This document shows positions 20,252-41,335 of a stretch of 64,000 nucleotides of DNA, piece by piece (the first letter of the stretch is position 1; each line of letters begins with the position of its first letter). The notes below the pieces were generated by a model. That model was not told where the DNA came from. It made no database searches and saw nothing but the letters and a program-made list of their open reading frames with translations. The stretch is from positions 86,799-150,798 of the forward strand of contig MFOC01000007.1 in NCBI GenBank assembly GCA_001782235.1. The letters run 5' to 3'. Source of the DNA: Candidatus Levybacteria bacterium RIFCSPHIGHO2_02_FULL_40_18. GTDB taxonomy: Bacteria; Patescibacteriota; Microgenomatia; Levybacterales; GWA1-39-11. The position numbers and the translations under genes were made by a program.

Positions 20252-20755
20252 TTAATAAGTTTCCCCCTCTTCAGCGTCAGGAATAGGGGGGGAAGATGTA
20301 TTAAGCTCATAAATAAATGGAGGATATAGGGCTGATCCTTCTGTTGATTTTGTTTCTTGCGTAACTGTGATTTTTGTCCTTCCTTCCGCCCAAGAGATAG
20401 CAGGGGTGATTATCAATGAGTTTGGAACAGTGCCTTGCCGGACAGATGTTTTAACAAAAGGTTCAACAGTGTACTTTAAGTTTTCTGGGATTACAACACC
20501 ACTAAACAAAAATTCTACTGGTTGAAAAGTTAAGTAGAAAAGATCAGAGGATTGACGAGGTGAAGATCTAATAACTTGAAAAGTTTTTACCTGCGGCCCA
20601 AGTGTTGGGGAAGAGGTTATTTCTCTGGTTGGTTCGGGTGTGGTTTCGGTCCGGGGCACATAGGGTCTCAAAATTAAAGACAAAAGCAGGAAAAAAACGG
20701 GTATTACGATAATAAATAAAACAATGAATAAGTATATGGTTTTTATTTTTTTCAT
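20252..20755 (-). CDS. hypothetical membrane-anchored secreted protein
   Basis: N-terminal TM/signal anchor and a Thr/Pro-rich linker. Last gene of the T4SS-like operon. Confidence 0.5.
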   Translation of the reverse strand: MKKIKTIYLFIVLFIIVIPVFFLLLSLILRPYVPRTETTPEPTREITSSPTLGPQVKTFQVIRSSPRQSSDLFYLTFQPVEFLFSGVVIPENLKYTVEPFVKTSVRQGTVPNSLIITPAISWAEGRTKITVTQETKSTEGSALYPPFIYELNTSSPPIPDAEEGETY

Positions 20756-20764
20756 TTTATAAAT

Positions 20765-22981
20765 TTATAAACAAAAATTTGCCGCAGTATCAATAGGTTT
20801 TCTTCCTCCTGTTCCGAGAGAGGCAAACTCAAAATGAACATGATTACAATTGGGATTGTTTGTACAAATTTTGGCCCCAACATCCCCTGATTTTCCCTCT
20901 GAAGTGCCGCTTCCCTGGTCTACATGATGGAATCTAAGCCAGTAGAGCTTACTGGAAGGGCTTGTTCCTCTATACTCTATTATATAACCGACGCCGCTAT
21001 TAGTCCTATCTTCGGAAAGTAGTATCCAGTCAAGAATCTCCCCATCAATTTTTGGAAAATACACATTTTGCCCAGGAGGGCCGGGTATGTCTTCTGCGTA
21101 GTGTATATCTTCATATATGCATAGTTCGGGCGCAGGATAGTTGAGGCCGCAATGCCCGCATTCGCTTCTTGGTGTGAACTCGCTTCCGCAGGAAACAGTA
21201 GATGCAGTTGCTCCCGGAATCGGGCATGTAGCTGAAAACAATGGCCCTGAGGGTGGTGCAACTTCGATCAGCGCGCCATAAGACCCTGCCGGAACAAGTT
21301 TTTCATACCAAAATCTTATATTCGGAGGGAAGTTTGGATTTTGTGCGAATGTACAAGGCGCATCATGCCCGTCACTGTACCTACACATAAAATCAGCAAA
21401 TCTATCATTTGATAAAAAACCGAAACTAATAAAAACACAAGCGAGGCTTTTATTAATATCATCATTTTGCTGACCCGGTGCGCACCCAAGTGGGTCTGCG
21501 GCAGGCACCCCTTGCGCCCCCGACTCCTCAATCCATAGAGCAAGAAGAAACGCAGGATTCCATCCGTTTGCAACTGCCTGCGACACAATGGTATCCCAAT
21601 TGCCAATCTTTGCATCGGGCCAGTTAGCAGTGATTTGTCCGCGAATATCTTGCGGGATTACGTTTGGGTCACGAAAGGGTATAGAGTAGTTAAGTCCTGC
21701 CGCCTGTTGTCCTCCATCTCCAGGGCCGGTCCCCTGACCCCCTCCTCCCCCGCCTCCAAGACCAAGGCTGGGAGCAAAATTGCCTGGGTTAAATATAATA
21801 ATGAATAATGCAAGAGCAAAAATTACAAGAAGACCAATTCCTGCCCATCCGATAGGCGTGAGTTTTGCGAAAAAGCCAAGCGGCTGTGTTGCTGTTTGTT
21901 CAACTATTCGTCCCGCTGTTTGGACATTGCTTAACAAAGATGGGAGTTTGTTAATCCGATCCACTAAGCCCCTTCCAAGCCTTGATCCCGGAGCGCTTCT
22001 TATAGGCGTAGTGCCTATAGGTTTCTCAAGCGGAATATATAATTTATGGGGAGGGACAGCAGGTTTTATGGCTTCAAGTCTTTTTGTTGCTTCCGAAACC
22101 GATATTTTTGGAGCCTCGCGCTTAGCCTTTTCTACGTACTTTATTTCTTTCCCCGTGCTCTCTTGGAAAGACCGAAGACTTCTTTGAATACTCTCTCTTT
22201 CGACGGTTCTCCGTATATCATTATTGCTTGCTTGGTAAGCGCTAGATTTAGTAGGGTATTGCTTTGCAAACCTATCCCACTCCCGACTCTTGATCTTCTT
22301 TTCAATCTCGTCCCAATTCTCTTCGAGCTTTCCCGCTTCAAAAAGAGCTTTTCTTGCCTTAATGTGCTCGTCTATATTGCTCTTCGCTCGATTAACAGCG
22401 GGATCTTCATCAAGGGTTTTATAAATCTTTTTTGCGCGCTCGTCATAATATGCTGCCCGGCTTTTGTTTTTTTCGCGAAATTGTCTCTCGGCATCGCTAC
22501 GAAGCGTTGGAGCATCTGGGTTGTCCAAATTGCCATAGCGATAATCTAACCATTCGTGGCTCTCAGAGGTCTTCCCGGGATTATTTTTCTGCCACTCTTT
22601 TGCTAAATTCTCCTCTATTTTTTTAAACTTAGGGTCATCCTCCAATAGATCTGGCCGCCGCCGGATAAAGAAAAGAGGAGACGCTAGAAGTCCTGCAAAA
22701 TTTGCAAAACCCCCCTGCCCTCGAGCGGTTTCTTGTGGAGCTTCAGGTTCTTGCGTGGGTATTGTTGAAATAGCCTCAAGGATTTGACTTCCTATCCAAA
22801 TACGTTCTAGTTTGTTTGGATCAACGCTCAGGTCATTTGCGCGAAGATATGCCGCCAGTTCTGCGCGAGTTTTAAAAGGAGGTACGCGGTTTTCTTTTAG
22901 ATACTCATTTGTTTCTATTGCATAGCTTTGAGCGCGCTCACGGTTATTCTTTATAAATTTTGAAATATTGTCCATTGGCAA
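20765..22981 (-). CDS. membrane-anchored cell-wall hydrolase (SLT-like + M23-like motifs), VirB1-analogue candidate
   Basis: About 360-aa cytoplasmic charged N-terminal region, one TM (GWAGIGLLVIFALALFIIIF), a Gly-rich linker, then NGWNPAFLLALWIEESGAQG (lytic-transglycosylase-like E-S), then ...LRFHHVDQGSG...NCNHVHFEFAS (M23 HxxxD / HxH-like). Confidence 0.5.
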   Translation of the reverse strand: MPMDNISKFIKNNRERAQSYAIETNEYLKENRVPPFKTRAELAAYLRANDLSVDPNKLERIWIGSQILEAISTIPTQEPEAPQETARGQGGFANFAGLLASPLFFIRRRPDLLEDDPKFKKIEENLAKEWQKNNPGKTSESHEWLDYRYGNLDNPDAPTLRSDAERQFREKNKSRAAYYDERAKKIYKTLDEDPAVNRAKSNIDEHIKARKALFEAGKLEENWDEIEKKIKSREWDRFAKQYPTKSSAYQASNNDIRRTVERESIQRSLRSFQESTGKEIKYVEKAKREAPKISVSEATKRLEAIKPAVPPHKLYIPLEKPIGTTPIRSAPGSRLGRGLVDRINKLPSLLSNVQTAGRIVEQTATQPLGFFAKLTPIGWAGIGLLVIFALALFIIIFNPGNFAPSLGLGGGGGGGQGTGPGDGGQQAAGLNYSIPFRDPNVIPQDIRGQITANWPDAKIGNWDTIVSQAVANGWNPAFLLALWIEESGAQGVPAADPLGCAPGQQNDDINKSLACVFISFGFLSNDRFADFMCRYSDGHDAPCTFAQNPNFPPNIRFWYEKLVPAGSYGALIEVAPPSGPLFSATCPIPGATASTVSCGSEFTPRSECGHCGLNYPAPELCIYEDIHYAEDIPGPPGQNVYFPKIDGEILDWILLSEDRTNSGVGYIIEYRGTSPSSKLYWLRFHHVDQGSGTSEGKSGDVGAKICTNNPNCNHVHFEFASLGTGGRKPIDTAANFCL

Positions 22982-22991
22982 GACAAGCTAT

Positions 22992-25049
22992 CTATGAAGA
23001 AACTATTTTTATTCCTTGAGAGCTTTCATCTAGGTTGGCTTGCGAAATTTTTTCTTGCTCTTGAACGGGAGACGTGTTAGCAGGGGGGGCTGTCATATCT
23101 TGCGCCTGTGTCTCTGGTTGCTCTCCGGGAGCGGATTGAGCGTCAGCGATGGAGGCATCCTCGCTGACAGGCGTGGGCGACGTAGCGGTGGCTGCCTCTT
23201 CTTCATGGGCAAGAATATCTTGAGGTTTTGAGGTGATCAGATCATATTCATATTGTGACGCTATGAACTGCGCGGTTACATGGTTTTGTCCTGCAAAAAG
23301 AAGTCCTTCCCCAACCTGGGCGGTTACTAAAAATTGTTTCTCTCCTTCTGATAAAAATAACGTTTTTGCCAAAACTTCAACTTCTGACGAGTTCTGTTTC
23401 AAGAGAATTTGGACTGAGGAGTTTGAAAGAATAGACTTTCCATAGTCGCTTGACAGGAAATCTTCAATATCCTGAGTAAGGGTTGTCACGCCAAGAAAAT
23501 ATTTTCTTGCGCGCTTTGCTATCCCTTGCAAAAAGGAGGCAGAATCAGGATGCTTCATAAGATACCATGCCTCATCAACCACCAAAATTCTTTTCTTAAG
23601 TTTTGTTCTGACGCGATTCCAAATAAAATCTAAAACCACGTGCATTGCAATTGGACGCAAAACATCCTCGAGCTGTTTAAGAGAAAAGACGGTTAATTGA
23701 TTTTTTATGTTGTAATTCGTCTGCTGATTAAATAGCCCAGAGAATCCACCTTTTACATATTTTTCAAGACGGAAAGAGAGATCCCTTGCCTCCGGCTCCT
23801 CCATATTAAGTAAGGTTTTATAAAGGTCCTCCAAGATCGGCGGCTCGTTTTTGTAGGTTGCAGGATCCGGCGTTATTCCCTTTTGCTTGTAACAAAGAAC
23901 AATCGCTCTATCTAAAATTGCCTCTTGTGTTGGAGACATCTCCCCAAGCATTGTTTTTAGGAGTCCGTGAAGAGATAATATTTTTATTCCAAGCTGGGCA
24001 TCTGTCATGTCTTCTTGGAGAAGGGCAAACGGGTTAATTTTTACCTCAGAACTTTTTGAGAAGTTTATATATTCGCCATCCAAAGCATGACATAAGGTTT
24101 TGTATTCATCTTCGGGATCTATTATTAAAATCTCGGCGTCAAACATCATTTGCCGCAAAATTTCAAGCTTTACCAAAAAAGATTTTCCGGCGCCCGATTT
24201 TCCAAAGACCACTTCATTTGCATTCTCAAAAGAAAAGCGGTCAACAATCGCAAGCGAATTATTTATGGTATTCACGCCATATAGAATTCCGTTTGGATGG
24301 GAAATTTCATAAGACGTAAATGGAAAAGTTGAAGCCAAAGACGTTGTGTCCATATTGCGGGTTATAAATAGCTTGTCGATTCCTGCTGGAAGACAGGTTT
24401 TGAATCCGTCTTCCATCTGAAGCGTTGCGGGTTTTACAACCAAAAGGTTTGAGGAAAGCAAAGACTGAAGTTCTTTGGTTTTTATATCTAAATTCTCAAC
24501 TGAATCTGCTGCCAGGGTTATATATAGACCAAATTGGAAAAACCGTTCAAGACCTCGCGCTAGCTCTTCTCGGAGCGCTATAGCATCTTCAAGCCCCGCC
24601 TGAATTTTAGGATCCGGCTCAAGCCCCTGTTCCGCATCTGACTGAAGTGTTGCCTCCATCTCGGAGATTTTCCTTCGCAGGTTTCCCAAAACATCCTTGC
24701 TTTCAACCGGATATACAAACATTGATATGTTCATTGTTTCTTTATAGTCAATAAGAATTGAGAGCCAGTTTGGAGAAACCTGACGAGGGTAATCTACAAC
24801 AAAAAACGTTCTGAAAAACTTATCGCCAACTCTTATATTTTTAAAATCTACCTCAACTGAGGAGGGGGATATAAGGTCAACAACAGAAACCGAGCCTGAC
24901 TTGAGAGCATTATATCCTTGCGAGGAGGCGCGTTTTTGAGCAGGCCCCGCACCGTCCCGGTGCGGGGCAGGGACTTTCTGGATCTGAGCGTTAGCGGCGG
25001 TTGGATCCGATATAGCCTGTGTCTGTTGTTTTTTATCTTCATCAAACAT
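22992..25049 (-). CDS. VirB4/TrbE/CagE-family type IV secretion ATPase (ATPase body)
   Basis: Walker A FGKSGAGKSF, Walker B ILVVDEAWYLM, and N-terminal FFVVDYPRQVSPNWLSIL CagE_TrbE_VirB-like segment. Confidence 0.75.
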   Translation of the reverse strand: MFDEDKKQQTQAISDPTAANAQIQKVPAPHRDGAGPAQKRASSQGYNALKSGSVSVVDLISPSSVEVDFKNIRVGDKFFRTFFVVDYPRQVSPNWLSILIDYKETMNISMFVYPVESKDVLGNLRRKISEMEATLQSDAEQGLEPDPKIQAGLEDAIALREELARGLERFFQFGLYITLAADSVENLDIKTKELQSLLSSNLLVVKPATLQMEDGFKTCLPAGIDKLFITRNMDTTSLASTFPFTSYEISHPNGILYGVNTINNSLAIVDRFSFENANEVVFGKSGAGKSFLVKLEILRQMMFDAEILIIDPEDEYKTLCHALDGEYINFSKSSEVKINPFALLQEDMTDAQLGIKILSLHGLLKTMLGEMSPTQEAILDRAIVLCYKQKGITPDPATYKNEPPILEDLYKTLLNMEEPEARDLSFRLEKYVKGGFSGLFNQQTNYNIKNQLTVFSLKQLEDVLRPIAMHVVLDFIWNRVRTKLKKRILVVDEAWYLMKHPDSASFLQGIAKRARKYFLGVTTLTQDIEDFLSSDYGKSILSNSSVQILLKQNSSEVEVLAKTLFLSEGEKQFLVTAQVGEGLLFAGQNHVTAQFIASQYEYDLITSKPQDILAHEEEAATATSPTPVSEDASIADAQSAPGEQPETQAQDMTAPPANTSPVQEQEKISQANLDESSQGIKIVSS

Positions 25050-25170
25050 AATTTATTTAATTCAAAACTCAAAAGTCAAAAGTTAAAAATTAAAGTTAAA
25101 ATTTAAAAGTGTTTTTAATACTTTTTACTTTTGAATTGCAATTTTGAATTTTGCATTTTGACTTTTAACT

Positions 25171-25845
25171 TTACAATATTACATTCTTAATATCATTCGA
25201 ATCAAAATCCAAAGTAATAAACTCCTGATTGAATAGTTCATAGTAAAGCTTTATAAGCTCATTAGTTGAAAGTGGTCGAGCAGAGAGTCCCATTCTCTCA
25301 ACTTGCGTAGTAACATTGTTTCTTTTTGAAATAAGCGCTGATTTTACCCTCTCATTTAATGCCAGGTTTTTTTTGTCCGTTGTTTTCGCTTGTGCAGCAG
25401 AGGCTACCCCAAGCTCCAGTTGAGAAAACGGGATTACAATATAAATCTTTTTGTCTAAAAGTCCCTCACCCTTTATCAGATCTTTTATAAAATCTCTATA
25501 TAATGTTAATTGTTCCTTGACCTTAGGGTTTTGGATTCCTGCTATTTTATCCTCGATTAGTTTTATGTAACTGACAAGATCTACGCGCCGTGAGACAATC
25601 AATATTTGAATAGATGAAGAGAGAGAATTAAGAAGAGACATGTAGCCATAGATTCTTGCGTTTTGTTCATCTTGTGAGAGAAGGAAAAAATTAACGGACG
25701 AAACTTCCATAATCATACAAGCATTGCCGCCTTTTAAGAAGACAATATCGTCCTGGATGTCAACAATCTCAGTAAAATCTTGCGTGCTTGAGTGAATCTT
25801 TGACTTAGCCATAATCGATATAGAAATTGGTTGTAGGATTTCCAT
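25171..25845 (-). CDS. VirB4 N-terminal-domain protein (separate ORF)
   Basis: LKGGNACMIMEVSSVNFFLLSQDEQNARIYGYMSLLNSL..IQILIVSRRVD aligns with the VirB4 N-terminal region (LEDGSIMSIARIDGVAFELEE..NARCRAFNTLLRNIAD.HVSIYAHLVRH). It is out of frame with the downstream ATPase ORF. Confidence 0.5.
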   Translation of the reverse strand: MEILQPISISIMAKSKIHSSTQDFTEIVDIQDDIVFLKGGNACMIMEVSSVNFFLLSQDEQNARIYGYMSLLNSLSSSIQILIVSRRVDLVSYIKLIEDKIAGIQNPKVKEQLTLYRDFIKDLIKGEGLLDKKIYIVIPFSQLELGVASAAQAKTTDKKNLALNERVKSALISKRNNVTTQVERMGLSARPLSTNELIKLYYELFNQEFITLDFDSNDIKNVIL

Positions 25846-25880
25846 TACTAATTTCCATTTTCCAATAACTATTTTCTAGT

Positions 25881-26954: not shown

Positions 26955-27134
26955 AATAACGATTTTCGCTGATTTTTTAGCTGATTTACGCCGATCTGCG
27001 GCAATCCGCCATTAATCCGCGAGAATCCTATAGCTGATAGATCAAAATGACCAATAGGTCTATCTATTAGTTATTAAGACTCTTCCGTATAAACAGGTTA
27101 CTATGTGAAAATTCTGAATGCAAGATTATCAAAA

Positions 27135-27170
27135 TATGTCAGAACCGCGTCAGACGCGGTCAGACTAGAG
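27135..27170 (-). terminator. intrinsic terminator after ORF 27196..28539
   Basis: Minus-sense hairpin GACCGCGTCTGACGCGGTTC followed by a U-rich tract. Confidence 0.4.
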
Positions 27171-27195
27171 GAAAATTAAAGCTTTCTCGTGAAAA

Positions 27196-28539
27196 CTATT
27201 TCTGAGAGGCCATGTCCATACCCATATCCGCCACAGCCATAAGAAGAAACAGAAGACCTAGCAGTCCTATCCCGCCAATTGTTTTTGCCTTTTTGATGGC
27301 GGCTTCTCTCTTTAATTTTTTTTCAGCTTTTTGTTCCGGAGAATCTTTAGGATCATCCTGCAATTCATGAAAAATAGCATTTACAGCTGTTTCAAGATTA
27401 CCGCTTTTTAATGCATTTTTTACTTCTCTTGCGGTTTTAGTGTCTACTTGTGCAGTGCGGACCTTTTCAAGATAAATTTGCATGCCCTGGTCCTGCCTTA
27501 GGTAGTCTGAAGCTTTTTCATAAAAAGATACATATTCTCTTTCCAATGCAAGCTCTCGTTCTAACTGTTTTCTCGTTTCTCCATCAAGATTTCCACTATT
27601 TAAGCTCTTCTGAATTTCTTGTACTCTACTTGAAGCTCTTGTAGAGAGCGTATCAAGATCCAAGTTCTGCATAATTTTTGCAGCGGTTTCTGGGTCAAGC
27701 AAATTTCTACCTGCGAGCGAATCTAAAAACTCTTGTTTTTGAGCTGGATCTTCAATAGTGCGTTCAGCAAACCCCCGCATGTCTTCTGTGGTTATAATTT
27801 CTGTTTCATCCGCAGCTTTTTTGCTGAGAGCATTTATATTATTTGAGTCTTTTCCTTCAAGCGCTTGTTCTCCTCCTTGGAGCACATCTATATGCAACTG
27901 GAGTAGCTCCCTTTGCCCGGGGGGCATGCGTGCCATTATTACAGAAGCAGCATCCGGGTTAGAAGTTAAAATTGATTGTTGGATTTGCTCTCGCGTTAAA
28001 GTTTCTGGGACTTGTACATTTTCATTTTCAGGATCCTGCAAGAAACAGGAAAATTTTCCATCTGCAGTTACCTCAAGGCTTTTTACAGTCATTACCTTAC
28101 CGTCTTTTGTATATTTCAAAGGGTCACTGGATTTAAATGTTAGTGCCTCACCTGTATGAGTGCCATCGCTCAAGGTTTCTATTTGCCACATTCCAAAGAG
28201 TAGATTTTTACCCTTATCAGTTTCGAGCAAATTGATTCTTTCCTGCTCTGTCAAGCCCTCGACTTCTTGAGCTGCTTGCCTCATTTCCCTGTAGACCGAG
28301 CGGCTTCCCACAGTCCCTATCTCTCTTATTTGAGTTTGCCTGGAGACTTCTCTTTCTGAAGTTCTTGATTCCTCTTGTTCAAGAGATGAGTCCTGGCGAG
28401 AAGGAGTATCTCGCTGCACTGGTGGCGGCACTACAGCTGTTGCTTCAGGGGTCGCACCTTCTATTGCGTCTGGTCCCATAAACTTATCATACTTGAAAAA
28501 ACAAGCTGCTTCAAGTAATAATAGTGATATATGGTTCAA
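27196..28539 (-). CDS. hypothetical charged/coiled-coil protein with C-terminal TM anchor
   Basis: Glu/Gln-rich, C-terminal IGGIGLLGLLFLLMAV. A hairpin terminator follows at about 27135-27165. Confidence 0.5.
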   Translation of the reverse strand: MNHISLLLLEAACFFKYDKFMGPDAIEGATPEATAVVPPPVQRDTPSRQDSSLEQEESRTSEREVSRQTQIREIGTVGSRSVYREMRQAAQEVEGLTEQERINLLETDKGKNLLFGMWQIETLSDGTHTGEALTFKSSDPLKYTKDGKVMTVKSLEVTADGKFSCFLQDPENENVQVPETLTREQIQQSILTSNPDAASVIMARMPPGQRELLQLHIDVLQGGEQALEGKDSNNINALSKKAADETEIITTEDMRGFAERTIEDPAQKQEFLDSLAGRNLLDPETAAKIMQNLDLDTLSTRASSRVQEIQKSLNSGNLDGETRKQLERELALEREYVSFYEKASDYLRQDQGMQIYLEKVRTAQVDTKTAREVKNALKSGNLETAVNAIFHELQDDPKDSPEQKAEKKLKREAAIKKAKTIGGIGLLGLLFLLMAVADMGMDMASQK

Positions 28540-31545: not shown

Positions 31546-31553
31546 AGTATTAT

Positions 31554-31901: not shown

Positions 31902-32210
31902 CTATCTTGGGGCGAGCTGCCCTACGCCCGTGATTTGGGATATGGCGTTAAGGAAGAAAAATGAGAGAAAGATAAATATCAGACCAGCAAGCGCATAGAC
32001 TAAAGTTTTCCTAGCGCTTGATATCTTTTCAGGATCCCCTTCTGACATAACATATTTATATCCTGCATAAATTATCATAAAAACCGATACAATACCCGCA
32101 ATTACAATAAGGGCATTGATGATATTTTGAAGAACCACAGGGATACACGAAAGAGTTGCGACGCCCTCAGGGCTAACACAACTTCCCCAATCAGAAATAA
32201 TATCAAACAT
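31902..32210 (-). CDS. T4SS pilin-like protein (VirB2/TrbC-like, paralog 1)
   Basis: Two hydrophobic helices flanking the conserved YAGYKYVMSEGDPEKISSARKTLVYALAGL motif shared by four paralogs. Confidence 0.55.
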   Translation of the reverse strand: MFDIISDWGSCVSPEGVATLSCIPVVLQNIINALIVIAGIVSVFMIIYAGYKYVMSEGDPEKISSARKTLVYALAGLIFIFLSFFFLNAISQITGVGQLAPR

Positions 32211-32260
32211 ATATATATTTTATAGATAACCTAATCTTAAAATCAATAAAGAAGGTTTTG

Positions 32261-32659
32261 TTATTTGAATTCAGGGAGGGTGAGGATCTTGAGATTTCTT
32301 AGGTCTCCAAGTCCAAGAGCCTGAAGCACAACATTTATAATGACAAAAGAAAGAGCTATTATAATAAGACCTATTACTGCGGCAATTATATGATTTCTTG
32401 CATCTGCAACTTTTTGTTTGTCTCCGCCTGATGTGATCCACTGAAATGCCCCAATGACTATAAAAAGAAGTGCCGCCAAAAAGGCTATAACTATTATAAA
32501 GGCAACCAAAAACCCTACCACTTGGCCAATGGTTGTTTCAGGAGGAATAACAGTTGCGCCCGCGGGAGTTTTGACTCCGGCATCTATCGCGGCAAAAGCA
32601 GGTGCGGCAAGTGAGGAATAAGAAATTAGAGCGAAGGCACCTGATAATATCTTTCTCAT
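32261..32659 (-). CDS. T4SS pilin-like protein (paralog 2, with signal peptide)
   Basis: Signal peptide ...AAPAFAA, then ...GAFQWITSGGDKQKVADARNHIIAAVIGLIII. Confidence 0.55.
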   Translation of the reverse strand: MRKILSGAFALISYSSLAAPAFAAIDAGVKTPAGATVIPPETTIGQVVGFLVAFIIVIAFLAALLFIVIGAFQWITSGGDKQKVADARNHIIAAVIGLIIIALSFVIINVVLQALGLGDLRNLKILTLPEFK

Positions 32660-32698
32660 AAATTAATTAGAGCATGTTTCAAACCCTTTGTCAATAGT

Positions 32699-33034
32699 CT
32701 ATGGATTAACAACTGTTTTAACACCAAACGCGCCTGCTACGAGATTTACAAAGACAAGCGCCAATGACATAACTATTAATCCAAATATCGCATAGATAAC
32801 TATTCTTCTTGCTTTATCCCATTTTTGCTTGTCCCCGGACGCTTGTAGCCAATAAAAACCCCCATAAACAATATAGAATAGAGAAAGAAAAATTCCAATA
32901 ATTAGCGCTAGTTGAATGAAAAAAGATGCAATATTGCCTATTGTAAATTGAGGTCCGGTAGGAATACCGGGAGGCGCCTCAATATCAACTTGGCCTCCGC
33001 CTGAACCCGGTACTTTTAATGATAAATATCTCAT
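32699..33034 (-). CDS. T4SS pilin-like protein (paralog 3)
   Basis: ...YGGFYWLQASGDKQKWDKARRIVIYAIFGLIVM. Confidence 0.55.
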   Translation of the reverse strand: MRYLSLKVPGSGGGQVDIEAPPGIPTGPQFTIGNIASFFIQLALIIGIFLSLFYIVYGGFYWLQASGDKQKWDKARRIVIYAIFGLIVMSLALVFVNLVAGAFGVKTVVNP

Positions 33035-33171
33035 ATTAGAAATTGGTTATTAATAATTAGAAAATAGTTCAGAAATTAGAAATTAGAAATTGGTTCTTGA
33101 TTTTTAACTATTTTCTATTCTCTATTTTCCATTACCATTTTCCATTCTCCTATAACTATTTTCTAATATAT
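33035..33171. repeat. palindromic intergenic element (family copy 2)
   Basis: TAGAAATTGGTTCTTGATTTTTAACTATTTTCTATTCTCTATTTTCCATTACCATTTTCC is nearly the exact reverse complement of copy 3. Confidence 0.65.
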
Positions 33172-34569: not shown

Positions 34570-34572
34570 CCG

Positions 34573-34723
34573 CTAGAAATTAGTTATTAATAATTAGAAA
34601 ATAGTTGTTGGAAAATGGAAATTAGTAATGGAAAATAGAGAATAGAAAATAGTTAAAAATCAAGAACCAATTTCTAGTTTCTAATTTCCGAACCATTCTC
34701 TAATTTCCCATAACTACTTTCTG
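34573..34723. repeat. palindromic intergenic element (family copy 3)
   Basis: GGAAAATGGAAATTAGTAATGGAAAATAGAGAATAGAAAATAGTTAAAAATCAAGAACCAATTTCTA, inverted relative to copy 2. Confidence 0.65.
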
Positions 34724-36040
34724 CTACTCTGTGAGTTTGTAGCCGCGGCCTTTTATGGTTTGGATAGAATTAGGATTATTGGGATCATCTTCTATTTTCT
34801 TTCGTAAGCGATAAATTATTTGATCAAGGGCTTGGTCTGTTACACCTTCTTGAGTTTTAGTGTCTTTCCAGACATTTGAGATTATTTCGTCTTTTTCACA
34901 TACCCGCCCTTGGTTTTGAAGCAAAAATCTAAGTAGTCTAAACTCCTGCGGAGAAAGAATTTCGGTTAAGTTTTGATCTCCCTTGAGGATCTCATTGCGC
35001 TCCTGATCATAAGACAATCTTGGGGAGGTGGGGGTTAAAGTTTTTAGGTATGTGTCGAACAATGGAATAACGAGTTTGCCATCACGGGTTAGTCCTGCCT
35101 TTTCTAAAAATTCATTTTTATTATTTGCTTTTATATCCTTCTTTTCTTCCGGTGTCAGGAAATTCCATATCTCTGAAAGCGCGCTCCTAACCTGTGGTTT
35201 TAACAGTAAGACTTCGGATAATCGGCTGTTGGCTGTTGGCTGTTGGCTATTGGCCAGGGTAGCTTCATAACAAATTCGTGCGAGTTTTCCGTGGCCGCCG
35301 GTCAGTTTTATAATTTCACTTTTAATTCTTTCATCAGCCGACTTTCCCGAAATTTCTTCAAGATGCTTGAATCGAAATTCTAGTCCCACCTTATCATAAA
35401 GCGAAAGATATACTATGTTACCGATTAAAAACTCAGAGAATTCGGCATAAATAGAAGATTCTAAAACCTCCTCGATTGGACGCGTTATGCCAAAAACAGC
35501 AGTAAATCTATACTTTGCGCGGTTTCGAAGAATCTTTAAGTTAAGAAAAAAGGAAGAGTCAATATTTTGTACATATTCCTCAAAACGGTCCAGCAGAAAA
35601 ACAATATTTAATTCGCATTCATTTGCAAGATAGTCTATAGCTTTTTTTAAGTTTTGAGAAAAGACCATCTCATCGGAGAATTTAAGAGCGTCTGAGAGAA
35701 ATTTATTAACAACCGACTCTTCTTCTTTTAATCTTCTTTCGCCAAAAGAGGAAGCAATAGAGATTAAGATAAATTTTAATATGTCGGAAAGGGACCTTTT
35801 GGCTACTTCTGAGAAGTCCATATAAACAAAATGATAAGAAGATTCCCTTTTACCTAAGTGGAGCTCCCGGACCGTTCTATTATAAGGAAGTAAACGAAGC
35901 GCGTTGCTTTTCCCTGTGCCCGGTAGCCCAATTACCTGACAGGATTTGCCCGATGATACGAATTCGATAATTTTGGCGATCTCAGCCTTTCTTGTTTCTT
36001 TTGGGTATAGGCTCTCAAAATGAGAAGGCTCGATAATCAT
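34724..36040 (-). CDS. AAA-type ATPase fused to C-terminal OmpR/PhoB-type winged-helix DNA-binding domain (candidate island regulator)
   Basis: Walker A GLPGTGKSNAL near the N-terminus. The C-terminal LSPQEFRLLRFLLQNQGRVCEKDEIISNVW...ALDQIIYRLRKKIEDDPNNPNSIQTIKGRGYKL matches trans_reg_C. Confidence 0.6.
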   Translation of the reverse strand: MIIEPSHFESLYPKETRKAEIAKIIEFVSSGKSCQVIGLPGTGKSNALRLLPYNRTVRELHLGKRESSYHFVYMDFSEVAKRSLSDILKFILISIASSFGERRLKEEESVVNKFLSDALKFSDEMVFSQNLKKAIDYLANECELNIVFLLDRFEEYVQNIDSSFFLNLKILRNRAKYRFTAVFGITRPIEEVLESSIYAEFSEFLIGNIVYLSLYDKVGLEFRFKHLEEISGKSADERIKSEIIKLTGGHGKLARICYEATLANSQQPTANSRLSEVLLLKPQVRSALSEIWNFLTPEEKKDIKANNKNEFLEKAGLTRDGKLVIPLFDTYLKTLTPTSPRLSYDQERNEILKGDQNLTEILSPQEFRLLRFLLQNQGRVCEKDEIISNVWKDTKTQEGVTDQALDQIIYRLRKKIEDDPNNPNSIQTIKGRGYKLTE

Positions 36041-36103
36041 AGAAAATAGAAAATAGTTATTAGAAAATAGACAATGGTTCGGAAATTAGAAAATAGAAAT
36101 TGG
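36041..36103. repeat. purine-word half-element (family copy 4, left arm)
   Basis: AGAAAATAGAAAATAGTTATTAGAAAATAGACAATGGTTCGGAAATTAGAAAATAGAAATTGG. Confidence 0.55.
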
Positions 36104-36532
36104 TTAACGATCATGGTAATTCTTCCAAGATTTCTTAAGATTCGTTAGTTGCTTACAGGAGATTATATATAAATTTATGACTTCGTTGCAAAGTTTAGGA
36201 TCGACGTATTTACTATAAACATCTATGCATACTGATAAATGATTTATCATTTCGTAACATTCACCTATCGTATCATCTATATATTTACTCCATGCTTTTT
36301 TCTGATATCTTTTGGCAAACCCCTCAGCAAGTATGGCTGGTCCTGCTTTGCAACTACGTCTCATTTGATCAACAAGATCAAACTTCTCTTCCTTCGGTAG
36401 ATTAGTAATTATTTCCTTCAATACTGTGACCATTGCCTTATATAAATTTTGGTACACCTCAAGATCTTGAAAAGTTCTGATTGGCTTTTTCTTTCTATTT
36501 TCCATTTTCAAATATCTATTACCATTTTCCAC
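36104..36532 (-). CDS. four-helix-bundle protein (23S rRNA intervening-sequence protein family)
   Basis: FQDLEVYQNLYKAMVTVLKEIITNLPKEEKFDLVDQMRRSCKAGPAILAEGFAKR matches the TIGR02436-type pattern. The first about 12 codons are read from repeat-element sequence, so the true start is probably internal. Confidence 0.55.
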   Translation of the reverse strand: MENGNRYLKMENRKKKPIRTFQDLEVYQNLYKAMVTVLKEIITNLPKEEKFDLVDQMRRSCKAGPAILAEGFAKRYQKKAWSKYIDDTIGECYEMINHLSVCIDVYSKYVDPKLCNEVINLYIISCKQLTNLKKSWKNYHDR

Positions 36533-36560
36533 TTTCCTACAACCATTTACAATTATCAGA
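36485..36560. repeat. pyrimidine-word half-element (family copy 5, right arm)
   Basis: TTTCTTTCTATTTTCCATTTTCAAATATCTATTACCATTTTCCACTTTCC, the inverted partner of copy 4 across the four-helix-bundle gene. Confidence 0.55.
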
Positions 36561-36627
36561 CTTCTGTTACGCTGCTGTTAGGTTAATATCAAGTATCCTA
36601 AGCTATATTCTTGTAAACTTGCGCCAT

Positions 36628-39600
36628 ATGACACACGAAAATTTGACACCAAGAGACGCTATCAACTATTCTATAAATAGAATGCCAGAACCCATAATAG
36701 ATGGCCTACGAGGCGGCTCTGCCTCAAGTCGTTCAGTTCCGGGATATGATTCTTCCAGAACCGTAGATGAAATACAGGCTCAAAGAATTGTTGATGAGGT
36801 CAAATCCAAATCTTATTCTGCTAAAAGCAAATGGAGCAAAGAACAGGTTGATAAAAATGCCGGGCTTTCTGATGAGGAACGTCTTAGTCAAGCAGCTAAA
36901 ATTTTAAATCGGGAGCTTTCTCAAGAACAAAAAGACGCAGTCATTGGAACACATAAAATTAGCGAAGGCGAGATGGGAAAAGATGATAAACCTGTCAAAA
37001 TAGGAGAATACACACAGGCTCAAATTAAAAGAAAAGCCAATTCATTGAAAAAAGCAGGGTTTAATCTTGAAGAAAGGCGTGCTTTGCTTGAAAGCGGCAT
37101 TGCCGGCCTTCCTCTGGAAAGATTCGCCGCTATTAATCCTGACACATATACAGATCCTGAGATTAAAAATAAAACGGGGTTTGTAAAAACTATGGGGACA
37201 GAAGGAAACGCTGATTCGGAATTCTTACAGAATCAACTCTTTGAACTCAACTCTAGAATCGATAGGGGAACTGGGGACCTCAGAGAAGCAAGAACATTTC
37301 GGGATCAAATACAAGATCTTTTGACAGAGGCTCGTAGGCAAGAAACTGCAGAATTAGAAGAGAGAAGGCGTGCCGCGGAGGCAAGGTCTCCTACAGAGAG
37401 AAGGGGAGGCTATGAGCATCTTGAACGAACAGAGGAACAATTAAGAGCTATGACTCCTGAGGAACGTCAGAATTGGAGGGATCAAATTAAGCAGGCAATC
37501 AGAGAAGCGCCAGCCATCGATGCCTCTCGCTTCCCTGAACAACTTTTAGTAATAGCATTGAGCGATAAGGAACTTCGTGAGATGCTTCTCAATAGAATTC
37601 TTTTTAAACCCTATGAAGATACAACTGAGGCAAATATGTATAGGCTTAACTTTTACGCTGAGGGGAATCGCGACGATATTCTTGGGAAATTAGCCGAAAT
37701 AACTGATGGGAAATATGATTATTTTAAAAAACTTCAGACCGCGGTAGAGTTATTTCATGCAATGAATGTATCAACTGTCTCAGGAGACATAGAGCATTTA
37801 CTTGACTATGCTCGGCGAATAAATTTTGAACATTTTTCCTTAATGCAAGAGCTTCCAGGTCTCCCAGATGTCATGAGGCTTTATGAAGAGAAATACCAGG
37901 AGATTTTAGCAAGAGAAGGTAGAATAGCAACAGAGGGTTACAAAACATTAAAAAAAGAAGTAGAGAGAGCCTTCAATGAGATGAATGAAAAAGGGATTGT
38001 CAGAAGCGAATATGAAACGGAAAGGACTGGTGACAGGCCATGGATAATGGAAGACTGGGAAAGAACTAGGGCTATTAATGCGGGAAGAGCATTTTTTAAT
38101 ATTACCATTCGCGCAGCAGAACATATAGCAAATGGACAACTTGAGTCTGGAGGTAGAAAATGGACAGGATTTCCTCAGGAAGACGCTGTAAGACTTATGA
38201 ACTGGCCAAAATGGCTCGTTGAGAGATTTGAGGTTGCTATCCCTCGTGGAGGGCGTGCGTTTCTTGACAGAACAAGTAGAAACTACTTTGAATTTCTTGT
38301 TGAGCGCAAGCGAAAACTGGGGATAAATAGAATAGCCCAGCTTGGAGGAATGAGGGTTGATGAGCTTGAACTTGGGGCAATGTTTGGCGTAAGCGGAGTT
38401 TATAGCTCCTGGAGACTTGAGGCAATGCTATTTCCAAAGATCAAACTTGCCAATGGCCAGACACTTAGAGACTGGCTTGATGAGGAAGTCGGATATATAT
38501 CGCCGGACGGCAAGACAATTATGGCAAGAGGGAAAGACAGGCAGAGTCACTGGGTTGATAAAGGTATCTCCTTGCAGAAGCGGGCTGACTGGTTAGACCA
38601 GATTCAAGGAGATATTAAAAGCCAAGACCAGTTGCTCAAGTTTTTATCTCCTGTCATAGAAAATACAGACATTGCACTTGGTGTATTACTTAAGCAAGGT
38701 CTTACCTCAGGAGAGGTAGGATATAAGGTGAGAGAGAGAATTTGGCAAAGAGTTGCTGAAACAAATCTGCCTCTGATGATAAATTATCTTTCAAGCATTA
38801 GTGAAATGGATGATCCAATAGAGGTTGGTATAGGAGAACCTTTAAAAGGCGCACCAAAAGCTCAAAATCGCATAAGGCCAGATGACTGGACGTGCGGCGA
38901 AGAAGGGAGCGAGGAACGAAAGGAGGGAGATAGGAAGTGGAATGAGTTTAAAGAAAATGTTTTACTGCATCATGCCTGGGAAGTTAAACGCGCGGCGGGA
39001 GCAAATGTGTCAGAGGAGTCGCCTGTCCGTGATTATATTCGTGATCACCAAGATTTGATAGATAAAATTAAGCAAGAGGGGAGAGCACTTGCACCGCAAC
39101 TTGCAGATATTGTTTTTCCTTACGTTCCTTTTATGAATGACGTGCCATTTGAACTTATCGATTATGCAGGCCCGGGAGAAACATTCTACAAGAGGAGATT
39201 AGGCTCTGACCTTCCGAGCTTTAGCGCTGCAGAGCGCGCGTTTACAACCATTGTTAATAATCCGGGTGGGATAGGAGCAGAGAATGCACTTAAGGCATTT
39301 GATGAGATTGTAAAAGGAATTGAGAGTCCACAAGGGACACCGGATGCGCAGGAAAGGGTCTATCCAATGCTTTCTGCCTGGGGAGAATTTGTCCTGGCGC
39401 GTCCCGGGCATAGACAGATGATAATAAAGGCAGTTACAGAGATACTAAGAAAACCCACTTCCATTGCTCAGGAGTTTGCAGGAATGGATGCGGAATCTCT
39501 CGATGAAAATCAAATGCTGGCTGTTTTAGGAAATGCTACGAAAGCTGGAATTATAAGCCATGACCTTTACAATGAGATGAAGAAAAAAAAGCATCTGGGC

Positions 39601-39702
39601 ATTCTTTTTATCTTGTGGGCGCTTTTCCGTGATATTATTATAATGGCTCCGGCAATCGCAGCTTGGGAGATGGGTAAAGATACGATGAAGAAAGCGGCAT
39701 GA
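36628..39702 (+). CDS. giant hypothetical protein (about 1024 aa) with C-terminal TM anchor, island-specific
   Basis: The ORF track begins at 36481 inside the repeat element. The first ATG is 36628 (MTHENLTPRD). C-terminal hydrophobic HLGILFILWALFRDIIIMAPAIAAW. No known catalytic motif. Confidence 0.55.
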   Translation: MTHENLTPRDAINYSINRMPEPIIDGLRGGSASSRSVPGYDSSRTVDEIQAQRIVDEVKSKSYSAKSKWSKEQVDKNAGLSDEERLSQAAKILNRELSQEQKDAVIGTHKISEGEMGKDDKPVKIGEYTQAQIKRKANSLKKAGFNLEERRALLESGIAGLPLERFAAINPDTYTDPEIKNKTGFVKTMGTEGNADSEFLQNQLFELNSRIDRGTGDLREARTFRDQIQDLLTEARRQETAELEERRRAAEARSPTERRGGYEHLERTEEQLRAMTPEERQNWRDQIKQAIREAPAIDASRFPEQLLVIALSDKELREMLLNRILFKPYEDTTEANMYRLNFYAEGNRDDILGKLAEITDGKYDYFKKLQTAVELFHAMNVSTVSGDIEHLLDYARRINFEHFSLMQELPGLPDVMRLYEEKYQEILAREGRIATEGYKTLKKEVERAFNEMNEKGIVRSEYETERTGDRPWIMEDWERTRAINAGRAFFNITIRAAEHIANGQLESGGRKWTGFPQEDAVRLMNWPKWLVERFEVAIPRGGRAFLDRTSRNYFEFLVERKRKLGINRIAQLGGMRVDELELGAMFGVSGVYSSWRLEAMLFPKIKLANGQTLRDWLDEEVGYISPDGKTIMARGKDRQSHWVDKGISLQKRADWLDQIQGDIKSQDQLLKFLSPVIENTDIALGVLLKQGLTSGEVGYKVRERIWQRVAETNLPLMINYLSSISEMDDPIEVGIGEPLKGAPKAQNRIRPDDWTCGEEGSEERKEGDRKWNEFKENVLLHHAWEVKRAAGANVSEESPVRDYIRDHQDLIDKIKQEGRALAPQLADIVFPYVPFMNDVPFELIDYAGPGETFYKRRLGSDLPSFSAAERAFTTIVNNPGGIGAENALKAFDEIVKGIESPQGTPDAQERVYPMLSAWGEFVLARPGHRQMIIKAVTEILRKPTSIAQEFAGMDAESLDENQMLAVLGNATKAGIISHDLYNEMKKKKHLGILFILWALFRDIIIMAPAIAAWEMGKDTMKKAA

Positions 39703-39721
39703 AGCTTTTCTTGCTGTTCTT

Positions 39722-41335
39722 TTATCTAAAGACCCGTCTGAGAACAGCAGTAAGCCCTTTCTCACCCGCCAGTGGCATAGCGCCTTTTAGAGCTGCAAAA
39801 CCACCTCCAGCAGTTCCCCTAACAGTTCCTGTTATGACACCCAGTCCTCCTGCAACCGATCTTCCTATTGCTGCGGTGTACTTAAATTCGGGCGCTTTTA
39901 GAGCGTCCCTGACAATATTGACAACTTCAGGGGTCAAGAGAATTATTCCAAGACCAATTATTGACGCAAAGTTTGCTGGATCCAAAAAGTCTCCGGTAAG
40001 TGGTGGAACAAAAGGCGTTGTGCTTGGATCTTGTTTAGTAAAGCCACTCATAAAAGCCTTTCCAAAAAGAAACATGGCAATTGTTACCGGAAATACCGAG
40101 AGGTTTGATAATATTGATCTTATCCACGTTCCAAAACCAGATCTTCCCGGGATTAGCCCCGAGGCAATATAAAAGGGGGCAAGGACTACATTTATGAGGA
40201 CGTAGATATAGGATTTAATAAGTTGAAACCAAAGACGCAGGAGCGCTGCAAAAATTGCGATTATTATAATAAGGTACGTAACTGCACCTGCAAAAAATCC
40301 CAGAATTCTATTTCCAGACAGTTCATTCACCCCAAAACCTATTGCAAAACCTGCTACCGCCCCAGGGATCCCTCCGAAACTGCCAGCAGCCTTAGCTACT
40401 TTACCTAGCACTGAAGGTAGTCCACCTCCTGCGCCGCCCAACACGGTTCCAAAGATTCCGCCGACAATTCCTGCTAAAACATTCCCAAGAGTACCATCAA
40501 ATATAGATCGCACAATCCCTGAGATACTTTTAGCAACGCCTTCTGCAATTCCAGATATCCCCATGTCCTTTCCGGTGAGCGGGGCGCTGCCAAATCCTCC
40601 GGCTGCCGCAAAGGGGTTACTTGCCAACATACTTGTTGGGTCAATTCCTTGCTCGGCGAATATTGTCATAATTAAGTAGATTGAGACATACATAAGGTCC
40701 ACTAAAAACCCTGCGATTGCATAAGAGAAGGTAATCAAAACTAGAGCAATCACAATTTTTGGAATTTGATTTTGCATTGTCATAACGGTTCTGGGGTCAA
40801 TTTTTATTCTAAACATTATTCCAAGACCCACAATTATAAAAACAATTACAAAGAGAAGATAAGTCAAATTTCTAAAAGCCTGCCAGAGCTTAAGAGTGGG
40901 CGTAAGGGAATTAAAACCTAGGCTTCCCTCAGGTCCTTGCGCATATGTTTTTTTAACTATGCCAAAATTTGAAGCAACATAGCTTCCGTAATCATGAGTT
41001 GAGACAGGAATGTAAAAAGTTGCCGACATAAGATTTCCCAACATTCCAAGCGCTCCGCCTCCTCCCTCAACAAATCCTATTTTTCCAGTATTTGGATCTA
41101 TTCCAAGACACTTATTACCAGGATTGGCGGGATCAATTCCTGAGAGTTGACAAGAAGTTGCGGCGATAATTTCAATAAAGACGCTTTGGGTGTATGTATG
41201 GAAATTCTGCGGGACGTCCGGATTTGTGTTGAGGTAATTTGCATTAGGGTTTGGGAATTGAGCATTCGCGTTTGGTACAAAAATAAGGAACAATGAATAA
41301 AGAATAACGAATAAAGAGAGCAGTTTAAATATCAT
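39722..41335 (-). CDS. polytopic Gly-rich membrane protein, VirB6/TrbL-like candidate
   Basis: Signal/TM N-terminus, more than 6 TM helices, and Gly-rich loops (GGGGLPSVLGKVAKAAGSFGGIPGAVAGFAIGFG) as in TrbL/VirB6-type pore components. Assigned by topology only. Confidence 0.4.
   Translation of the reverse strand: MIFKLLSLFVILYSLFLIFVPNANAQFPNPNANYLNTNPDVPQNFHTYTQSVFIEIIAATSCQLSGIDPANPGNKCLGIDPNTGKIGFVEGGGGALGMLGNLMSATFYIPVSTHDYGSYVASNFGIVKKTYAQGPEGSLGFNSLTPTLKLWQAFRNLTYLLFVIVFIIVGLGIMFRIKIDPRTVMTMQNQIPKIVIALVLITFSYAIAGFLVDLMYVSIYLIMTIFAEQGIDPTSMLASNPFAAAGGFGSAPLTGKDMGISGIAEGVAKSISGIVRSIFDGTLGNVLAGIVGGIFGTVLGGAGGGLPSVLGKVAKAAGSFGGIPGAVAGFAIGFGVNELSGNRILGFFAGAVTYLIIIIAIFAALLRLWFQLIKSYIYVLINVVLAPFYIASGLIPGRSGFGTWIRSILSNLSVFPVTIAMFLFGKAFMSGFTKQDPSTTPFVPPLTGDFLDPANFASIIGLGIILLTPEVVNIVRDALKAPEFKYTAAIGRSVAGGLGVITGTVRGTAGGGFAALKGAMPLAGEKGLTAVLRRVFR

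Follow-up and report, generated by a model that had tools for sequence, protein, structure and literature searches.

A predicted type IV secretion locus with variable gene slots beside dnaA and dnaN in a Levybacteria genome

We analyzed a 64-kb stretch (the window; ∼40% GC) of contig MFOC01000007.1 from Candidatus Levybacteria bacterium RIFCSPHIGHO2_02_FULL_40_18, in which a cluster of genes resembling a type IV secretion system (T4SS) lies directly beside dnaN and dnaA. An open reading frame (ORF) map reproduced the coordinates that an initial annotation had given for 20252–41335 (Table 1). All but ∼15 small ORFs of the window were scanned for known domains. Scanning a single genome for each GTDB species yielded 261 VirB4 relatives, and synteny was counted, with iterated profiles, over the best 80 of these 261. 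The 80 loci belong to Levybacteria, Gottesmanbacteria, Chisholmbacteria and Shapirobacteria, with VirB4 proteins 54–88% identical to that of the window; individual loci are cited by L numbers.

Table 1. Positions of the cluster genes and of neighboring features in the window (TM, transmembrane segment; NTPase, nucleoside triphosphatase)
Feature	Position	Strand	Remarks
Fused GT4 + GT2 glycosyltransferase, 797 aa	15099–17492	-	internal TM segments; immediately upstream of dnaA
dnaA	17554–18966	+	Pfam Bac_DnaA, 9e-64
dnaN	19152–20249	+	three DNA_pol3_beta domains (Pfam)
Bitopic protein, 167 aa	20252–20755	-	N-terminal TM 11–29 and small β-rich ectodomain; last gene of virB4 operon
Predicted cell-wall hydrolase, 738 aa	20765–22981	-	VirB1/PrgK analog by predicted fold
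VirB4 ATPase, 685 aa	22992–25049	-	CD1110 (MPF_FATA) family; extreme N-terminal domain absent
TrsD-like protein, 224 aa	25171–25845	-	stand-alone VirB4 N-terminal domain; NCBIfam matches
PrgI/VirB3-like membrane protein, 357 aa	25881–26954	-	PF12666, 30.5 bits vs gathering threshold 27
Tail-anchored coiled-coil protein, listed 447 aa	27196–28539	-	first gene of accessory cassette A
Giant 1, 1004 aa	28531–31545	+	core of accessory cassette A; no known domain
Acidic helical protein, 115 aa	31554–31901	+	directly downstream of giant 1
VirB2-type pilin 1	31902–32210	-	PF18895 above threshold
VirB2-type pilin 2	32261–32659	-	PF18895 above threshold
VirB2-type pilin 3	32699–33034	-	PF18895 above threshold
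Extended pilin, 465 aa	33172–34569	-	C-terminal PF18895 domain, 24.7 bits vs threshold 26.6
P-loop NTPase + OmpR/PhoB-type winged-helix regulator	34724–36040	-	Trans_reg_C 9.5e-23, residues 362–436
Four-helix-bundle protein (23S rRNA IVP/TIGR02436)	36104–36532	-	PF05635 3e-15; TIGR02436 48.5 bits vs cut-off 24
Giant 2, about 1010–1024 aa	36628–39702	+	all-α, tail-anchored; slot between regulator and polytopic protein
Polytopic membrane protein, 537 aa	39722–41335	-	signal-like N-terminus, ∼8 TM segments
Class II-type ribonucleotide reductase	43169–45673		nrdR before it
AdoCbl-II riboswitch aptamer	45704–45777	+	39.8 bits vs gathering score 36.5
Cob(I)alamin adenosyltransferase	45857–46408		
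tmRNA, full-length	48499–48854	-	Rfam RF00023, 130 bits
smpB	48875–49315		
SpoIID-domain protein, 574 aa	52329–54053	-	coiled-coil N-terminus
tRNA-Ile, anticodon TAT	54198–54269	-	
Divergent coupling (VirD4/TraD-like) ATPase, 805 aa	54372–56789	-	two Pfam thresholds narrowly passed

Five genes run along the minus strand from 26954 to 20252, encoding PrgI, the TrsD-like protein, VirB4, the predicted hydrolase and the bitopic protein. VirB4 scored 410.5 bits against NF045971 (conju_CD1110; cut-off 325) over profile positions 177–732 of 752, which by score places it in the FATA clade; it also matched Pfam P-loop_TraG (7e-34). The nearest annotated plasmid VirB4s, of CD1110 type and from Firmicutes and Actinobacteria, are just 30–37% identical to it, compared with 54–88% for VirB4s of Levybacteria, Gottesmanbacteria and Chisholmbacteria. 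The 224-aa protein covers positions 18–181 of the same CD1110 profile. Since the two ORFs account for complementary parts of the profile, the split of VirB4 into an N-domain ORF and an ATPase, proposed earlier, is real. Further matches of the 224-aa protein were to positions 100–278 of NF045975 (VirB4_plasma, the VirB4 model of the Mycoplasma integrative and conjugative element [ICE]; 2.4e-9) and to TrsD/TraD NF041427 (6e-8), and a separate trsD ORF lies upstream of virB4 in 73 of the 80 loci. TrsD of pGO1/pSK41 is a named precedent for such a stand-alone VirB4 N-domain. The gene two places upstream of virB4 had been called VirB3-like, in agreement with its PF12666 score. Its product has a TM hairpin (residues 17–64), a long Pro-rich linker and a C-terminal β-sandwich-like domain with a sub-threshold CarboxypepD_reg-like match (8e-5). 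PrgI/VirB3 homologs at 70 loci are 320–525 aa long, versus 132 aa in the Firmicutes plasmid pCDC3875, and the extra length consists of the Pro-rich linker and the C-terminal CarboxypepD_reg/Ig-like domain.

The protein encoded downstream of virB4 had been described as a VirB1-analog hydrolase combining SLT-like and M23-like motifs. It consists of a ∼378-aa cytoplasmic N-terminal region, one TM segment and a 340-aa ectodomain that holds all 12 Cys. The full protein had no match in Pfam, NCBIfam or PDB sequences, nor did isolated segments in Pfam or NCBIfam at E ≤ 10. Alignment of orthologs resolved the ectodomain into two modules, the first with an invariant LWIEESGAQG and the second with an invariant Asp, His and HxH. 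The second module is a gene of its own (∼200 aa) in seven relatives, and some relatives fuse the first to a bona fide Pfam M23 domain. In hhalign, those M23 domains aligned to the second module of the window protein through the Asp, His and HxH (E 9e-5, probability 59%), and weak Pfam M23 matches were seen in 4 of 13 orthologs. An AlphaFold2 model of the ectodomain, built from 15 sequences, had a mean predicted local distance difference test score (pLDDT) of 72.8, with both modules at 80–95; it resembles lysozyme-like glycosidases and M23/LytM domains. Almost all of its top Foldseek matches were M23 enzymes, together with the two-domain phi29 gp13. Because module orthology, hhalign and structure prediction agree, the ectodomain is predicted, with support at the fold level, to comprise a lysozyme-like and an M23/LytM-like domain. 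Sequence models lend no such support to the earlier assignment, the Pfam M23 and SLT thresholds being missed. In the second module, HxH is present and the first Zn-ligand His is off the canonical HxxxD spacing. The last gene of the run, whose 167-aa product had no Pfam or NCBIfam match, keeps its position just before dnaN in 26 loci.

The pilin array comprises three small VirB2-type pilins and an extended one, consistent with the four paralogs first reported. The small pilins gave PF18895 E-values of 1.7e-10, 4.4e-9 and 5.3e-8, matched each other in BLASTP (5e-20 to 1e-7) and have two TM helices each; the fourth, just below the PF18895 threshold, is a clear BLASTP paralog of them (9e-13 to 5e-6). 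Pairwise identity among the four is 26–49% (BLAST local), with up to 53% over 36 residues. The shared motif originally proposed, Y-G-x-x-W-x-x-SGGD-x-x-K, is approximate: GD-x-x-K stands, as part of an invariant G-D-x-x-K-x-x-x-A-R common to all four, and SGGD occurs in two of four. The small pilins also weakly matched a pilin-like family of the Mycoplasma ICE (NF045849, Mbov_0395; 2.7e-9). Pilin arrays were found at 49 of the 80 related loci. The extended pilin, as first described, is Cys-rich (12 Cys), with a signal/TM segment, a Cys-rich ectodomain of ∼350 aa and the VirB2-type domain in its C-terminal 70 residues. Its N-terminal domain is kept in 18 close relatives, where the gene is always the first of the array after the regulator. 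VirB2 termini face outside in known conjugative pili. As a candidate minor or tip pilin, the extended protein would present its Cys-rich, adhesin-like domain at the surface.

Immediately upstream of the extended pilin gene, in the window and in 30 loci, lies a regulator initially annotated as an AAA-ATPase joined to a winged helix-turn-helix (wHTH) domain. The wHTH part is strong (Trans_reg_C, 1e-22) and the NTPase match in Pfam is weak. Similarity to response regulators is confined to the DNA-binding domain, and the protein thus lacks a receiver domain; from its conserved position we infer that it controls the pilin operon. The next gene, for a four-helix-bundle protein as previously recognized, is probably a passenger. 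Such four-helix-bundle genes, weakly Avd-like, are scattered among T4SS genes in L038, L053, L067 and L076, with up to four copies per locus, which suggests small mobile or passenger genes.

The polytopic protein had been taken to be VirB6/TrbL-like, and every test of homology was negative. It had no Pfam match even at E ≤ 10 and none in NCBIfam; of 10 orthologs, one matched Pfam TrbL (E 0.11); its profile found no match in the PDB; and hhalign against CD1112 VirB6 returned a probability of 0.3%. We therefore regard it as a VirB6 analog by position and topology, homology being unproven. Homologs occur in 15 loci, the distant L001 among them. A different membrane protein, of ∼237 aa with six TM segments, is encoded directly upstream of prgI in 19 related loci (including L010, L014, L021, L022, L026, L034, L040 and L043), has no counterpart in the window and could be an alternative membrane-channel component.

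A VirD4/TraG-like coupling ATPase, or type IV coupling protein (T4CP), had been placed 13 kb from the cluster and flanked by tRNA genes. Its position stands, between tRNA-Ile(TAT) and tRNA-Ser, and the protein has an N-terminal TM segment. Its family assignment is weaker than first stated: TraG-D_C scored 25.4 bits against a threshold of 22 and TrwB_AAD_bind 24 against 20.5, every NCBIfam cut-off was failed, with TraD (9e-14) and the VirD4-like CD1115 (4e-7) far under theirs, and phmmer found no match in the PDB.

Gene order around the cluster is conserved. Over the 80 loci we counted TrsD in 73, PrgI in 70, dnaN in 67, dnaA in 63, pilins in 49 and the regulator in 30. The consensus order starts with the polytopic protein, an opposite-strand giant ORF, the regulator, the extended pilin, about three more pilins and a variable slot; it continues with PrgI, TrsD, VirB4, a hydrolase-type protein with small ORFs, a 167-aa-type protein, dnaN and dnaA. 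The region around dnaA and dnaN is the putative origin region, and the two genes abut the cluster, as the earlier claim of a position beside the replication origin would have it. One perfect DnaA box lies at 17565; DnaA boxes are not enriched in the window (15 counted, 14.3 expected), and promoter and terminator scans did no better than on shuffled sequence. The initial annotation had labeled the block an island and proposed examining its synteny and its GC content. Both comparisons contradict the label. GC at third codon positions is 0.27–0.39 for cluster genes and likewise 0.27–0.39 for flanking genes, among which are the housekeeping genes dnaG, rpoD, ruvB, nrdR with a class II ribonucleotide reductase gene, and smpB. 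In addition, the order beside dnaN–dnaA is kept in 67 of 80 relatives. On these two results we reject a horizontally acquired island and, judged by them, the cluster is a vertically inherited chromosomal locus. As noted initially, no relaxase was seen, nor an integrase or recombinase domain, among the window ORFs scanned (∼15 small ORFs and, for the relaxase, the rest of the genome lie outside the scan).

The cluster also encodes two ∼1000-aa proteins, giant 1 and giant 2, in which no recognizable domain had been seen; accordingly, neither matched Pfam or NCBIfam. Giant 1 is conserved in its N- and C-terminal regions, with a Gly-rich hydrophobic hairpin at ∼230–290 and a coiled coil in its center. 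Its family was delineated by searching 1.84 billion representatives exhaustively with a profile, which gave 283 representatives of 50%-identity clusters (194 with E ≤ 1e-30), most of them 900–1100 aa long. A word-indexed search gave three relatives only, and a metagenome scan, which depends on conserved peptide words, gave 2 loci. No credible domain emerged from a Pfam scan of 39 family members, forms of 1400–2000 aa included. An FBF1 match in one member (5.5e-05) was treated as chance, and PDB profile matches of giant 1 to SMC6 and the RipA coiled coil were read as compositional likeness, not homology. Neither giant had a tblastn match in 72,556 plasmids.

T4SS genes surround giant 1 in eight of nine readable contexts. 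It adjoins prgI in the window, L003, L010, L026, L042, L045 and L084, and pilins plus the polytopic protein in L001; the L085 context is not clear. Its usual companions are a divergent, tail-anchored partner of ∼420–460 aa and a downstream acidic protein of ∼115 aa. The partner, represented in the window by the 447-aa protein and present with giant 1 in L001, L010, L026, L042 and L084, has a C-terminal TM segment (421–439), 2 Cys and no signal peptide, and is without a Pfam or NCBIfam match; translation probably begins at the ATG near 28479. The 115-aa protein, found with giant 1 in L001, L010, L026, L042, L045 and L085, had no credible family match and is a candidate partner, chaperone or immunity protein of giant 1. 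The 447-aa ORF and the giant 1 gene run divergently from a region of ∼50 bp or less, and the 115-aa gene and pilin 1 converge without a spacer, ending on the adjacent bases 31901 and 31902.

From their distribution, these three genes are an accessory cassette, located between pilins and prgI in a slot of variable content. In the 47 loci that span the pilin array as well as prgI, this slot holds an unrelated cassette (a ∼650–700-aa plus a ∼117-aa protein) in 17, the ∼237-aa six-TM protein only in 10, the giant 1 cassette in 4 and other content in 6; it is empty in the remaining 10. The 650–700-aa cassette occurs in two orientations; hhalign shows the two to be homologous (97.7% and 98.7%) and finds no homology to giant 1. 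In the closest relative, L004 (VirB4 88% and DnaA 78% identical), the slot is empty, with a gap of 146 bp. A repeat search, made around the giant 1 cassette only, found no flanking repeats there. Giant 1 and the 447-aa protein diverge far faster than VirB4: between the window and L010, identity is 72% for DnaA, 86% for VirB4 and 76% for TrsD, versus 26% for giant 1, 28% for the 447-aa protein and 51% for the 115-aa protein.

Giant 2 occupies a second slot. It has a C-terminal TM segment (992–1010) and 1 Cys, its profile had no match in the PDB, and its homologs are 44–59% identical within Levybacteria. The block giant 2–polytopic protein–DUF5667–NrdR–ribonucleotide reductase recurs in L002; elsewhere, unrelated giants of 700–1400 aa fill the giant 2 position. 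For giant 2, AlphaFold2 run on an alignment of 6 sequences gave a poor model (pLDDT 46.8), whose Foldseek matches in the PDB, all noise at E > 1, were discarded. Mutual paralogy of giant 1, giant 2 and the alternative slot families was rejected after negative BLAST and HMM comparisons and hhalign probabilities below 4%. Giant 2, the 447-aa protein and the 650–700-aa family nevertheless have in common 0–4 Cys and no signal peptide, and most full-length members have a single TM segment near the C-terminus, where giant 1 instead has its hairpin. The two extracellular proteins, the hydrolase ectodomain and the extended pilin, have 12 Cys each. Given this contrast and the missing signal peptides, we take the slot proteins to be synthesized in the cytoplasm, where they probably also fold, and to attach to a membrane. 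The comparisons point to two hypervariable slots, pilins–prgI and regulator–polytopic protein, in which unrelated large Cys-poor families would be swapped between close genomes.

Linkage to the T4SS, presence/absence variation, extreme divergence and probable cytoplasmic synthesis with membrane anchors suggest, quite tentatively, that the giants are strain-specific membrane-associated adaptors or translocated substrates, not core parts. That slot proteins are specifically translocated substrates or host-specificity determinants, maybe inserted in the host membrane through the C-terminal TM segment, is a doubtful proposition; a recent review (PMC12981334) puts the share of pathogens' T4SS effectors with TM domains at about a third. 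The giants were initially singled out as candidates for novel structural or effector components. The choice was reasonable, but giant 1 is not a core structural component, since its cassette is absent from L004. This bears on the idea that the giants are core scaffold subunits replacing VirB8/VirB10-type parts and diverged beyond recognition, which we think unlikely. The slot upstream of the regulator is never without an opposite-strand giant ORF, a tail anchor would set the giants at the membrane face where VirB4 docks, and a VirB8 homolog is undetected here as in most Patescibacteria (PMC12102498). Yet the giants show no kinship in hhalign to each other or to the alternative families, and since 10 of 47 loci have nothing in the pilin–prgI slot, giant 1 cannot be essential.

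Might the giants instead be unrelated passengers, such as selfish, defence or toxin–immunity modules, sitting in permissive slots with no role in secretion? The closest relative lacks the giant 1 cassette, and the slot is home to at least two unrelated cassettes; both large–small gene pairs (giant 1 with the 115-aa protein, and ∼650–700 with ∼117 aa) resemble toxin–immunity pairs; and the four-helix-bundle gene shows that the locus tolerates insertions. However, the giant 1 family has a T4SS setting in eight of the nine contexts sampled, distant members (28–31% identity) included, the tail-anchored, Cys-poor architecture is common to different cassette families, and no enzymatic or toxin domain turned up in the 39 family members (a Pfam scan; PADLOC was not searched). 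We regard this account, too, as improbable.

We read the region, with a probability of roughly 0.8, as an origin-proximal, vertically inherited Levybacteria T4SS that derives from MPF_FATA and has been repurposed for a non-conjugative surface role, most likely contact and exchange with a host cell. The split VirB4, pilin array, remote coupling ATPase and CD1110-type VirB4 above cut-off fit the minimal, monoderm-type apparatus first envisaged. VirB4 energizes assembly and pilin extraction in T4SSs, VirB3 anchors VirB4, and PrgK-type hydrolases open peptidoglycan. By analogy, the regulator would switch on the pilin operon, and VirB4, with PrgI as its anchor and help from TrsD, would pull pilins from the membrane and polymerize them into a pilus-like conduit. 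The hydrolase would open the cell wall, the cell's own and possibly the host's, for this conduit; the extended pilin would decorate or cap the pilus as an adhesin; and the polytopic protein would serve as membrane channel. In the least supported step, slot-encoded giants might act as strain-specific adaptors or translocated substrates.

Several points weigh against this reading. Function in Microgenomates is extrapolated from Saccharibacteria, the pilus is a prediction, and a relaxase could lie elsewhere in the genome, beyond the 64-kb window. The T4CP, weakly supported, may have another role, and its Southlakia homolog is not essential (PMC12102498). VirB6 homology is undetectable, and no VirB8-like protein was identified in the locus. 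The giants show no family, motif or usable fold match in Pfam, NCBIfam, PDB profiles or the giant 2 model, and their rapid divergence could reflect relaxed coiled-coil constraint in place of host-driven selection.

Other functions for the whole locus fare less well. It might be a DNA-uptake machine like H. pylori ComB or archaeal Ced, importing host DNA as a nucleotide source: Patescibacteria lack nucleotide synthesis, ABY1-class T4SS loci neighbor competence genes (PMC12102498), and the window VirB4 and T4CP weakly match the Ced DNA-import ATPases CedB and CedD. Those matches, at 40 and 27 bits, are far below the 410 bits for CD1110; no competence genes were found in the window; and competence of S. 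epibionticum needs ComEC and type IV pili, with comEC deletion viable and the T4SS essential (PMC12857230). We consider DNA uptake distinctly improbable. The least credible reading is that an integrated conjugative element, whole or reduced to a remnant, continues conjugative DNA transfer here, a view prompted by the conjugative families to which VirB4, TrsD, PrgI, the hydrolase and the T4CP are assigned and by the pCDC3875-like gene order, and opposed by the lack of relaxase, integrase and recombinase domains in the ORFs scanned, of any compositional difference and of repeats around the accessory cassette, by the dnaN/dnaA-adjacent position in 67 of 80 species and by the rarity of relaxases in Patescibacteria (109 in 103 genomes; PMC12102498).

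Other features of the flanks were noted in passing. The glycosyltransferase upstream of dnaA has a homolog at 16 related loci. The AdoCbl-II aptamer sits between the ribonucleotide reductase and cob(I)alamin adenosyltransferase genes, and the tmRNA gene, missed by ARAGORN, adjoins smpB. A SpoIID-domain protein (SpoIID being a peptidoglycan-remodelling domain) neighbors the segment with tRNA-Ile and the T4CP. A tRNA-Ile with a TAT anticodon is uncommon in bacteria, where AUA is usually decoded by a lysidine-modified CAT tRNA. As for the relatives, the top VirB4 matches and the giant 2 relatives are metagenome-assembled genomes of Candidatus Levybacteria/Levyibacteriota, and a near-identical contig exists (DAIPBS010000025.1 of GCA_036774305.1). 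GTDB representatives with a Levybacteria-type locus (L005, L007, L010–L016 and others) are often titled 'uncultured Gammaproteobacteria' or 'Pseudomonadales', an evident mislabel at submission.

The core locus is a well-resolved Levybacteria example of a T4SS that is widespread in Patescibacteria and essential in Saccharibacteria, and it changes no concept. What is new, the variable slots with fast-evolving giant, mostly tail-anchored proteins, is a real but unproven lead. The slot giants, including a ∼280-cluster family without known domain, are leads to the cargo of these T4SSs. If the lead holds true, slot proteins could be the long-sought substrates that the essential Patescibacteria T4SS translocates, or could determine its host specificity. 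The extended Cys-rich pilin and the PrgK-like hydrolase fold add a candidate adhesin and a candidate wall-breaching enzyme.

Among known systems, one comparison is with the MPF_FATA systems of Firmicutes (CTn2/CD1110-type, for example C. botulinum pCDC3875; Prg of pCF10; Trs of pGO1/pSK41). The window shares with them a VirB4 of the FATA clade, PrgI/TrsC next to VirB4 and, by predicted fold, a cell-wall hydrolase (VirB1 analog) downstream of VirB4; for VirB6 (PrgH/CD1112/TrbL), position and polytopic topology alone agree. The order on pCDC3875 is VirD4–VirB6–PrgI–x–VirB4–x–SLT protein, of which the part from PrgI to the hydrolase is as in the window. Unlike the Firmicutes systems, the window locus is chromosomal and apparently vertical, with a VirB4 only 30–37% identical to theirs, no detectable CD1112/PrgH VirB6, no PrgB-type adhesin, no oriT and no relaxase in the ORFs scanned; it also has pilins, whereas Gram-positive MPF_FATA systems are without them. 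Compared with phi29 gp13 and PrgK-type bifunctional hydrolases, the window hydrolase is membrane-anchored, has a 378-aa cytoplasmic N-terminal region, departs from HxxxD spacing at the first Zn-ligand His and misses the Pfam M23/SLT thresholds. The Mycoplasma ICE module (Mbov_0395 pilin-like, Mbov_0396 TM, Mbov_0397 VirB4) is a wall-less/monoderm MPF_FATA relative that likewise has a small pilin-like protein. Its models are matched by the window pilins, TrsD and VirB4, all below cut-offs; unlike the window locus, these elements are mobile, carry a DDE recombinase and lack a pilin array.

The closest likeness is to the T4SS of Patescibacteria. Quinonero-Coronel et al. 2025 (PMC12102498) described a Patescibacteria VirB4 clade sister to MPF_FATA, with TrsD as the most frequent VirB4 partner along with PrgI/VirB3, arrays of 2–11 divergent VirB2-like pilins that are most abundant in Microgenomatia and Saccharimonadia, a usually distant T4CP, hardly any relaxases and often adjacent dnaA/dnaN. 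Wang et al. 2023 (PMC10633639) found the SEML1_0006–0019 cluster, including its pilin array, essential for epibiotic growth of Southlakia epibionticum, and proposed protein export or another non-DNA role. The window agrees with both accounts in its VirB4, TrsD and PrgI (TrsD adjoining VirB4 in 73/80 loci), its four divergent pilins, a hydrolase downstream of virB4, a remote T4CP, dnaA/dnaN adjacency, no nearby relaxase and probable monoderm (MPF_FATA) ancestry; it comes from Levybacteria (Microgenomates), whereas the organism studied is a Saccharibacterium. VirB6 is scarce in Microgenomatia (PMC12102498), in keeping with the purely positional analog here. VirB3 is reported to be less often VirB4-linked in this class (PMC12102498), whereas PrgI is adjacent in 70 of our 80 loci. 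That description includes neither the extended Cys-rich pilin nor the NTPase–wHTH regulator, nor does it mention variable slots or giant tail-anchored proteins. Because the core features are published (PMC12102498, PMC10633639, PMC12857230), the window adds a Levybacteria member to a known system.

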